This document shows positions 60,301 to 63,300 of a stretch of DNA of 64,000 bases, in pieces. Made by a program: the position numbers. This DNA comes from Escherichia coli 042 (GTDB lineage: Bacteria; Pseudomonadota; Gammaproteobacteria; Enterobacterales; Enterobacteriaceae), in assembly GCF_000027125.1 (NCBI RefSeq), contig NC_017626.1; one strand, written 5' to 3'. The number at the start of each line of letters is the position of its first letter. Position 1 is the first letter of the stretch.

Positions 60301-63300
60301 CTCGAATGTCCTCTGGTTTTACCTTTAACAGAGCCGCAAATTTTAGCGCAGCGTCGGTATTTACCGGTATCTTGCCGTTCAGATACTGGCTAACGGTGCC
60401 TTGAGATTCGAATCCCAACAACTCAGCCGCCAGCTCTTGAGTCAGCTTCAGCTCTTTTTTTCTTGCATTCCATGCGGCTTTTAAATTCTTGCTCGCTTCT
60501 GGAGTTGCAATCACTTCGCGTGTTTTTTTCATACATAGAGTTTATTTGTTTTACCAATATTATCAAAGATAGTCTGGCTATTGATCTTTAAAATTAGCGG
60601 GGCTAATATTTGCTCGAGGCATAACGTAGAAGGTTGGCTATGAACTTAAGAGACTATTTAAAAGAGAAACATATCACCCAGCTACAGTTTGGGAAGCTAA
60701 CGGGTTTATCTCAGGTGCATGTAAGTCGAGTGCTGGGGGGCTATGAAAGATTCAGCCCTGAAAAAGCATTACGTGTTGCTGAAGTAACGAATTTCGAGGT
60801 TACACCTCATGAACTCCGGCCTGATATTTACCCGAATCCAACCGACGGCTTACCTGTTGGATTCAAGGCTAACACACCAAATGCATCGGAGTTGATTCAT
60901 GAAAATCAGGCATGAGCACATCCGCATGGCGATGAATGCCTGGGCGCATCCGGACGGTGAAAAAGTTCCGGCAGCTGAAATAACCCGGGCTTATTTTGAG
61001 CTTGGTATGACGTTCCCGGAATTATATGACGACAGCCATCCGGAAGCCCTGGCTCGCAATACCCAGAAAATTTTCCGCTGGGTGGAGAAAGACACTCCTG
61101 ATGCGGTTAAAAAAATTCAGGCGTTGTTACCAGCGATCGAAAAAGCAATGCCGCCTCTGCTGGTGGCCCGAATGCGCAGCCACAGTTCAGCTTATTTTCG
61201 GGAGCTGGTGGAGACGCGGGAACGACTGGTGAGAGACGCTGATGATTTTGTCGCAGTGGCGATCGCTGGTTTCAACCAGATGAATCGTGGTGGCCCTGCA
61301 GGAAATATTGTGGCTGTGCATTGACTCGCAATATTCATACCGGATCACTTCCGGCAATTTGTGAGTAAAAAGATTCGGTATCAGAAGAGGTGAGTATGGC
61401 TAACGCCTGGCTCAGATTATGGCATGACATGCCAAATGACCCTAAGTGGCGAACAATTGCCAGGGTGTCAGGGCAGCCAATTGCAACAGTGATGGCAGTG
61501 TATATCCACCTTCTGGTGAGCGCGTCACGAAATGTCACGACATGTCACGGCGTGTCACTACGTGGTCACATTGATGTCACGACGGAAGATTTAGCAAGTG
61601 CGCTTGATGTGACGGAAGAAGTAATTGATTCAATTTTACAGGCAATGCAGGGGCGGGTACTTGATGGAGATTTAATCACCGGATGGGAAAAACGCCAGGT
61701 ACTGAAAGAGGACAATGGCAACGTTTCACAAACCGCGAAATCCCCGGCAGAGCGCAAGAGAGCGCAGCGCGAGAGGGAAAAATTACGAAAACAGAATGAG
61801 GGGTGTCACGACGAGTCACGCATATGTCACGACATGTCACGACGAGTCACGACAGATAAAGATACAGATAAAGAATTAAACCCCACACATAACGCGCACG
61901 TGCGCGAGAGTGCTCCGACCAGTGAGTCGAGTGGTACGCCGTTGCAGGCAGCAGAACCTGCATCCCTGGATGGACTGAGCGAACCCATCGGGAAATTTCC
62001 GATGGTCGATGACTGGCATCCGTCGCCGGATTTTCGACGACGGGCTGCGTTGTGGGGGATGGCTTTGCCGGAGCCGGAATTTACACCTGCTGAACTTGCC
62101 GCTTTCCGGGACTACTGGGCAGCGGAGGGGAAAGTTTTCACGCAGGTTCAGTGGGAGCAGAAATTCGCCCGTCACGTAAATCACGTCAGGGCGCAGGTTA
62201 AGCCAGTCAGCAAGGGGGTAAACCATGCAGCAGCACCAGGTGGCACCGCATCACGGGCAGTTCAGGAAATTCGGGCAGCACGTGAGCAGTGGGAACGTGA
62301 AAACGGATTTATCAGCGACGGAAACGGTCTGGAAGCTGTGGGAACTCATGGGGGAGGTTTATTCGAACCGCTGGACCCAGAAGAACGGGGCCGCACCTTC
62401 GAAGCTCTGGATTGCACAGATTGGCGCGATGACTGAGCAGCAAATCCGACAGGTCTGCCGCCAGTGCATGGACCGCTGCCGGGCGGGTGAAACATGGCCT
62501 CCGGACCTGGCTGAGTTTGTGGCGCTGATTTCAGAAAGCGGGGCCAATCCATTTGGCCTGACGGTGGATGCTGTGATGGAGGAGTACCGCCGCTGGCGTG
62601 ATGAATCCTGGCGATATGACGGAAGCGACAAATATCCGTGGCCTCAGCCTGTGCTGTACCACATCTGCCTCGAAATGCGTACCAGAGGGATTGAGCGCCA
62701 GATGACGCAGGGTGAGTTAAAACGACTTGCGGAACGGCAACTGACGAAATGGGCAAAGCATGTTGGTAACGGGATGAGTGTTCCGCCAGTGCGACGACAA
62801 CTGGAAGGGGCGAAACACCCGCAAGGGCCAACGCCAATTGAACGGCTGAAACAGGAATACGAACGCCGGAAGGCAGCTGGTTTTATTTGAATCTGAGAAA
62901 CGATTTTGTCGGAGGAAATTTTAATGGAAACCGTATTTGACGCACTGAAAGCAATGGGAAAAGCCACATCGGTAGAACTGGCCGCGCGACTTGATATCAG
63001 TCGTGAAGAGGTTCTCAACGAGCTGTGGGAACTCAAAAGAAATGGCGTCGTTGATAAAACTGGTCACACCTGGTTTCTGGCTGGCGAAGGTGAATCCCGG
63101 GTAACCGAAGAGCGGCCAGTAAAATCTGAAGCACAGGATATGCTGACCGGGGAGGTCGAACAAAAAGTTACCGCAGACATGATGATTGAGTTTATCGGTC
63201 AGGATGGTGCTAAAACGTGTGAGGAACTGGCGGGTAAGTTCGGCGTCAGTACTCGCAAGGTTGCCTCCACGCTGGCGGTGGTAACCGCAACGGGGCGGCT

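Follow-up and report, generated by a model that had tools for sequence, protein, structure and literature searches.

An out-of-frame overlap of 212 nucleotides between the initiator and helicase loader genes of a lambdoid replication module in Escherichia coli 042

The subject of this paper is a lambdoid replication module in Escherichia coli 042 (assembly GCF_000027125.1, contig NC_017626.1), which lies in a window of 64,000 nucleotides (nt), the whole stretch of DNA that was analysed. Like the O-P module of phage lambda, it has an initiator gene followed by a loader gene, iteron-like repeats within the initiator gene, and a loader of the P family with a matching domain layout. In lambda, O and P have just 4 nt in common (P begins at 39582 and O ends at 39585; PMC3640518), whereas the two genes of the window share 212 nt, and the loader gene, read in another frame, supplies the last 70 residues of the initiator. 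The elements on which the argument turns are the following (residues of the initiator are counted from GTG 61390 throughout).

61390 to 62436, plus strand: open reading frame (ORF) of the O-like replication initiator, 348 amino acids (aa) from GTG 61390; the RefSeq coding sequence, 61396-62436, begins at ATG 61396 and has 346 aa.
62212 to 62219, plus strand: Shine-Dalgarno (SD) sequence of the loader gene, AAGGGGGT, six bases before ATG 62225 and within the initiator codons for K-G-V.
62225 to 62890, plus strand: gene of the P-like helicase loader in its full-length form, 221 aa from an ATG; matched by PF06992, by phrog_109 and, in Foldseek, by lambda P.
62225 to 62436, plus strand: overlap of the initiator and loader genes, 212 nt, with the loader in the +1 frame of the initiator.
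62348 to 62350, plus strand: internal ATG (loader M42), the start of a 180-aa annotation; a universally conserved residue with a weak SD.
62429 to 62436, plus strand: ATGACTGA, whose ATG (loader M69) is the start of the 153-aa form in RefSeq and most phage records and whose TGA is the initiator stop.

The relative frame follows from the two starts, (62225-61390) mod 3 being 1. Inspection of the sequence finds a stop of the P frame, TAA 62219-62221, just 5' of ATG 62225, which is therefore the first possible start of the loader ORF. ORF calling and inspection also bear out what a preliminary description of this DNA had said of the two ORFs, of the loader's ribosome-binding site (RBS) and of ATGACTGA at 62429-62436; the out-of-frame O/P overlap of 212 nt to which it drew attention is real, and is kept across divergent loci. 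It had left three ways of reading that overlap: a dispensable C-terminal part of the initiator, a loader that starts at ATG 62429, or a change of frame. None of the three turns out to be the best reading, and a long overlap that is in itself the conserved and functional layout was not among them.

By its sequence and predicted fold the loader is a member of the P family, and a role in loading DnaB is ascribed to it by family likeness. It matches PF06992 (Phage_lambda_P) at 59.3 bits against a cut-off of 26, and phrog_109 ('P-like helicase loader') with E 2.2e-63, residues 19-221 aligning with positions 22-236 of the 236 in the profile; the N-terminal 68-aa fragment taken alone also matches phrog_109 (E 2.9e-4). 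NCBIfam has no model that matches the loader. In the AlphaFold2 (AF2) model, with a mean predicted local distance difference test score (pLDDT) of 77, residues 1-27 are disordered and helices 29-46, 48-54, 60-67, 71-86 and 95-105 are confident, the first three of these at pLDDT 87-89. The best Foldseek matches of the loader in the PDB are to lambda P in its complex with DnaB (9oa1 chains Y, Z and V; E 1.7e-5 to 3.6e-5, probability 1.00, template modelling (TM) score 0.42-0.50), and the crystal structure of domain III (8v9s) has a TMt of 0.89 to the loader model. Lambda P is divided into domains I (residues 1-29, the flexible N-terminal lasso), II (about 30-119), III (about 120-192) and IV (193-233) (PMC12661323). 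As modelled, the 221-aa loader reproduces this layout, with residues 1-27 as the predicted counterpart of domain I and with the beginning of domain II inside the overlap:

62309 to 62425, plus strand: first three helices of the domain-II equivalent of the loader, aa 29-67; opposite the disordered acidic tail of the initiator, aa 307-345.

Colinearity with the P family over its full length holds only for the 221-aa form that starts at 62225.

An alignment of 33 homologues, with identities as low as 42%, places loader residues 36-67, AWxLWExMGEIYSNRWTxKNGAxPSxLWIAQIG, with the best conserved parts of the protein. Within this block, which lies wholly inside the overlap and 5' of 62429, W50, K53, N54, G55, P58 and W62 are invariant in 33/33 aligned loader proteins, and an exhaustive HMMER search finds distant representatives that match the loader from about residue 24-38 on. 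These results bear directly on the proposal that the loader starts at ATG 62429, by termination-reinitiation at ATGACTGA, with the long upstream ORF untranslated. The start is the one used in RefSeq and most phage records, and an ATGA-type junction is the classical lambda arrangement, which is also seen in an outgroup. Against this, no other block of the N-terminal half is as well conserved as residues 36-68, which all lie 5' of such a start and show P-frame periodicity; M69 is Leu in many loader homologues; and a 153-aa product would be without half of the domain-II equivalent. The preliminary description had tied a start near 62429 to a lack of conservation in the overlapped segment; alignment of homologues finds strong conservation there, and the proposal is refuted by it and by the frequency of Leu at position 69. 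As the start of the loader we regard ATG 62429 as highly improbable, but a minor truncated isoform from this site could conceivably be made in the E. coli subgroup.

The signals for initiation lie further upstream. An upstream ATG is found 37-50 codons before the W50 codon in each of the 20 divergent loci that were analysed in detail, preceded at 5-9 nt by GGAGG, GAGGT or GGGGG. Its predicted duplex with the anti-SD sequence reaches -10 kcal/mol or lower in 13 of the 20, a threshold that 2.8% of all windows in initiator genes pass. The initiator residues that are encoded over the SD vary by lineage (KGV, GG, RG, EV, GD, GE, RV) while the purine motif is kept, and where they are Gly-Gly, 11/11 lineages use GGA GGN; elsewhere in initiator genes GGA makes up 28% of Gly codons. 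Codon usage of this kind points to selection on nucleotides, as a ribosome-binding site would bring, rather than on the initiator protein. Shuffled sequences fold as well as 62170-62270 does (z 0.52), which gives no RNA structure that would mask the loader RBS; structure-mediated coupling at the RBS was dropped as a candidate on the same result. We infer that the loader is translated from 62225, independently of the termination of the initiator.

A start at the internal ATG 62348 (M42, 180 aa), whether as the sole start or as an additional one, would leave an overlap of 89 nt and make the openness of the frame upstream of it accidental. An ATG does stand at -8 codons from W50 in every locus, many database entries have 179-181 aa, and loader residues 1-27 are without amino-acid constraint, all of which speak for M42. 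The SD before it is weak, however, 0/20 loci reaching -10 kcal/mol against 13/20 at the upstream ATG, and M42 lies mid-way in the confident helix 29-46, so that initiation there would cut the first domain-II helix. Moreover, residues 36-41 (AWxLWE), 5' of M42, are conserved, the P frame remains open 29-42 codons further upstream in 20/20 loci, and an extra N-terminal segment before the M42 position is present in family profiles and in lambda P. This start is accordingly an unlikely one, and ATG 62225 is retained as the loader's start in what follows.

The W..KNG motif is found in 28/31 loci; where a long upstream ORF is present with it, that ORF ends 29-89 nt past the W50 codon, most commonly at +65 or +68. 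The loci span about 15 genera, namely Escherichia, Citrobacter, Klebsiella, Pluralibacter, Phytobacter, Kluyvera and Pectobacterium, with Prodigiosinella, Erwinia, Serratia, Rouxiella, Samsonia, Limnobaculum and others also carrying the overlap. Measured from the upstream ATG it is 149-224 nt long in the 20 divergent loci, and in three more homologues it is 227 nt (41% identity), 197 nt (42%) and 149 nt (31%) long, in the identical relative frame. Sequence comparison on this scale indicates that the out-of-frame overlap is genuine and conserved over many enterobacterial genera. (The sole locus with a broken layout is in Leclercia adecarboxylata, LR590464.1, 3065-3268: there the loader frame has just 20 open codons ahead of W50 and lacks a start, the loader ORF is cut short at 3268, and the relative frame of the upstream ORF is the other one. 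This prophage copy has probably decayed by a frameshift.)

Both frames are kept open well beyond what chance would give. In the 20 divergent loci the third frame of the overlap has 72 stops in 1323 codons and the two coding frames have none; alternative frames in the non-overlapped parts of the genes have stops at 4.4-4.8% of codons. When one protein is held fixed and its synonymous codons are redrawn, locus by locus, the stretch of the loader frame between the upstream ATG and M42 stays open with a probability of 0.22-0.78 per locus, and that of the initiator frame between M42 and its stop with a probability of 0.07-0.62. The log10 probabilities sum over the 20 loci to -6.8 for the loader frame and -13.7 for the initiator frame, sums that treat related loci as independent and therefore overstate the significance; both results would still be clear with half the loci.

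Which of the two frames is under constraint changes along the overlap. The measure is the mean pairwise nucleotide difference by codon position in ten alignable loci, with initiator positions O1, O2 and O3 coinciding with loader positions P3, P1 and P2, respectively:

61957 to 62224, initiator only: O1 0.31, O2 0.29, O3 0.55; initiator-frame pattern.
62225 to 62305, 5' part of the overlap: O1 0.31, O2 0.31, O3 0.52; initiator-frame pattern.
62306 to 62433, 3' part of the overlap: O1 0.435, O2 0.20, O3 0.17; loader-frame pattern.
62437 to 62887, loader only: O1 0.54, O2 0.20, O3 0.14; loader-frame pattern.

The constraint switches frame between 62285 and 62315. Sites under purifying selection in both frames at once are not found: constraint is partitioned, and the drop in variability at wobble positions within the overlap is mild at most (P3 0.44 vs 0.54; O3 0.52 vs 0.55). 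Thus, each gene sets an unconstrained, disordered segment over the constrained segment of the other. On the initiator's side the constrained segment is a helix:

62251 to 62301, plus strand: conserved helix of the initiator tail, SRAVQEIRAAREQWERE, aa 288-304; opposite the disordered loader residues 9-26.

Aligned initiator tails open with a variable linker, pass into a conserved S-R-A-V-Q-Q-I-R-A-A-R-E-x-W-E-R and close with an acidic end that is less well kept; AF2 predicts the helix 288-304 (99-115 in the numbering of the model) at modest confidence (pLDDT about 56-59) and disorder for 305-348. The motifs EER, LD and DW/DR at the extreme C-terminus of the initiator follow from the loader's codons for K-N-G, W and Q-I-G, together with synonymous variants. 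The suggestion that the initiator's C-terminal 70 codons are dispensable is thereby divided: it stands for the last 43 or so, which evolve as a passenger of the P frame, and it does not hold for the first 27 or so of the overlapped codons, which encode the conserved helix with O-frame periodicity, nor does it account for an O frame that is open to a conserved stop position.

A switch of the substitution pattern from one frame to the other at about 62300 is also what an initiator-loader fusion would give, whether by a sequencing or assembly error or by a programmed +1 frameshift near that point, and phrog_15931 and some database proteins do join a DnaT domain and a P domain in one chain. Error is excluded, since the same two-ORF layout recurs in over 100 loci that were sequenced independently, and in 1252 E. 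coli genomes that are complete. A model with the fusion as sole product leaves unexplained the SD and ATG 62225, a P frame without stops over 62225-62305 and an O frame without stops over 62306-62436. As to programmed frameshifting, for which slippery sites were not searched systematically, 62170-62270 forms no stable structure (z 0.52), and the region of the frame junction carries indels among relatives. A change of frame, the third option of the preliminary description, finds no support in the two-frame layout of so many independent loci, in the want of an evident RNA structure or in a fused class that is riddled with frame errors; there is very little likelihood that it is correct.

In phrog_15931 (482 positions) the initiator of the window matches positions 1-347 and the loader positions 280-482. 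The candidates for a natural O-P fusion (P0119, P0103, P0132, P0146, P0147 and phrog_15931) change frame at places that differ from one to the next and have other frame errors besides, and fused O-P proteins in databases also run into neighbouring genes. This suggests that the fused proteins are indel errors in assemblies or artefacts of gene calling.

The history of the overlap can be read from its relatives. An outgroup loader (32% identity), which lies behind an initiator of HTH_36 type, has an ordinary 4-nt ATGA junction; as judged from this sequence, one large P-family clade has the overlap as a derived trait. Relatives without the overlap have a homologous N-terminal region in their loaders, which makes the loader's frame there the older one, onto which the initiator tail was overprinted. 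At the far end of the range, a high-G+C contig from Logan SRR31677056 (L117) has a loader with 31% identity, a 149-nt overlap in the same relative frame and an upstream protein that ends ...PSAVQRVFDSAAAYE..., resembling the enterobacterial tail helix. From this contig the overlap may be older than the Enterobacterales, although high G+C often leaves long frames open.

The body that precedes the tail in the initiator differs from that of lambda O. Pfam gives the window initiator a DnaT domain only (PF17948, 64 bits, aa 203-269) and does not find in it PF04492, the N-terminal DNA-binding domain Phage_rep_O that lambda O has; RefSeq labels the protein 'DnaT-like ssDNA-binding domain-containing protein', and its best PHROG match is phrog_1408, 'replication initiation protein' (E 8.8e-117). 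It has the DNA-binding domain PF17948 in common with the primosomal DnaT of E. coli, from which it differs by an unrelated N-terminal half, by iterons in its gene and by the extra tail; with the DnaT equivalog NF002770 of NCBIfam it scores 97.4 bits against a cut-off of 201, and only profile positions 80-166 match. Its profile matches thus indicate an initiator of the iteron type that has a DnaT domain and is no orthologue of DnaT. The corresponding features are these:

61996 to 62196, plus strand: DnaT-type DNA-binding domain of the initiator, aa 203-269 by Pfam; AF2 pLDDT 85-92.
61522 to 61571 and 61804 to 61863, no strand assigned: iteron-like TGTCACGAC repeats with a 10-nt period, family D1/D2, inside the initiator gene.

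There are six copies of TGTCACGAC, at spacings of 10, 10, 272, 10 and 10, which make two clusters of three overlapping repeats, in contrast with the single block of four iterons in lambda. The second cluster is followed by a tandem ACAGATAAAGA pair at 61852-61874. As expected of an origin, the repeat clusters lie inside an initiator gene that has the loader gene directly downstream, and the TGTCACGAC/ACAGATAAAGA region is, from its sequence, probably the phage origin.

The same tail is found behind different initiator bodies. It is attached to a DnaT domain in the window and in four of the compared loci (L007, L013, L025 and L112), to a Phage_rep_O domain (PF04492) in another (L018), and to bodies without any Pfam domain in five more (L020, L021, L023, L030 and L031). 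Similarity of the window to L018 becomes detectable 12 codons ahead of the loader ATG. Tail and loader gene thus behave as one recombination unit that stands behind different initiator bodies. From this linkage, and by analogy with lambda O, whose C-terminal part (residues 156-299) is used with P and DnaB (PMC12661323), we infer that the tail helix is a loader-docking element.

The proposal that draws these observations together is as follows. The loader would be translated from its own SD and ATG 62225, inside the O-like initiator gene, while translation of the initiator would run 70 codons further, to TGA 62436. Over 62225-62305 selection acts on the initiator frame, which encodes the conserved amphipathic helix (aa 288-304), and the loader frame encodes a disordered N-terminus; over about 62306-62436 selection acts on the loader frame, where domain II has its first helices, and the disordered acidic tail of the initiator follows from the loader's codons. 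The helix would recruit the loader, like lambda O's P-binding C-terminal domain, and the arrangement would be favoured because recombination cannot separate interacting partners that are encoded in one DNA stretch. Taken as a whole, a maintained out-of-frame overlap in a lambdoid replication module, with the loader starting at 62225, is in our judgement quite probably the right explanation.

Several points weigh against it, beyond the overstatement in the summed probabilities referred to above. The loader's residues 1-27 are those without amino-acid constraint, and the only grounds for their translation are the SD-ATG, a frame that is open, and family colinearity; the last 43 or so residues of the initiator are likewise without amino-acid constraint, though their frame is kept open. 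Any signal of co-variation between tail and loader is confounded by the nucleotides that they share. Finally, flexible links between the domains keep the Foldseek TM-scores with lambda P modest.

Two precedents invite comparison. A longer form of lambda O, O', was reported early, ending within the N-terminal coding part of P, and the lambda O frame is open for 35 or 62 codons past its stop (PMC3640518). O' requires read-through of a UGA, with P in the -1 frame relative to O, whereas in the module of the window P is in the +1 frame and no stop is bypassed. The other precedent is provided by viral overlapping genes that arose by overprinting, or de novo (reviews: PMC8227390 and PMC6195259), with which this overlap shares its same-strand, out-of-frame layout, a younger frame over an older gene, and disordered segments. 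It differs from them in that no new gene has arisen, an existing one having gained a C-terminal extension, in that constraint is partitioned along the overlap, and in that the two products form one functional pair. No specific description of this long initiator/loader overlap was found in the searchable literature.

The surroundings of the module can be dealt with briefly. A gene of the YdaS helix-turn-helix type and a gene of the YdaT 'toxin' family lie on its 5' flank (60634-61324), and a DUF1627 (YdaW-like) gene with two winged-helix-like matches lies on its 3' flank (62924-63694); RefSeq starts the latter at ATG 62924, and its longest ORF starts at TTG 62906. The initiator gene is a mosaic: the first 575 nt or so (61300-61875) match the E. 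coli phages vB_EcoS-689R5, Evi and Tritos at 87-89%, and the remainder, with the loader gene (61855-63000), matches prophages of the Rac-SA53 and PPompW type at 90%. The window region is identical to an Escherichia albertii contig. Two homologues come from less expected sources, one a phage recorded from Actinobacillus pleuropneumoniae (PP818812.1), with DNA 90% identical to the E. coli module, the other a 560-nt contig of a Vibrio sinaloensis assembly (NZ_AEVT01000091.1), with a loader 74% identical; the host assignment of both is questionable, and contamination may be involved.

The module is widespread, being found in 1252 of 5426 complete E. coli genomes, with several copies in each O157:H7 genome, and its annotation is a practical concern. 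RefSeq (annotated with PGAP) has the 153-aa form of the loader in E. coli, including O157:H7. The phage records of Rac-SA53 and vB_Apl-pPE4 have the same 153-aa form, from the ATGACTGA site, Stx2-phage records start the loader even later, and protein databases hold 180-aa and 221-aa versions besides. The 153-aa annotation drops the N-terminal 68 residues, that is the whole lasso segment and half of the first folded domain, so that anyone who clones or models the loader ORF as annotated works with a truncated protein. (The initiator can suffer too. On the metagenomic contig L112, 1681-2727, the gene caller missed an initiator ORF of 348 aa whose overlap with the loader is 227 nt; its overlap penalty deleted a real gene and left an 'empty' gap of 724 nt in its place.) As a matter of method, a long overlap flagged in raw sequence could here be settled through comparative frame analysis alone.

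The overlap is a deeply conserved case of partner proteins that share coding DNA, and it yields a testable hypothesis about the site of initiator-loader specificity in widespread prophage replication modules. A more general form of this idea, which we put forward tentatively and think somewhat doubtful as it stands, is that the -1 (alternative) frame of the loader gene is a plug-in docking tail, made by overprinting, for any initiator that comes to lie upstream. If so, an initiator that recombines in frame just before the loader RBS would gain a helix already matched to that loader, and initiator-loader specificity would be inherited as one indivisible piece of DNA. This would explain how lambdoid modules shuffle their initiators without breaking the contact between initiator and loader.

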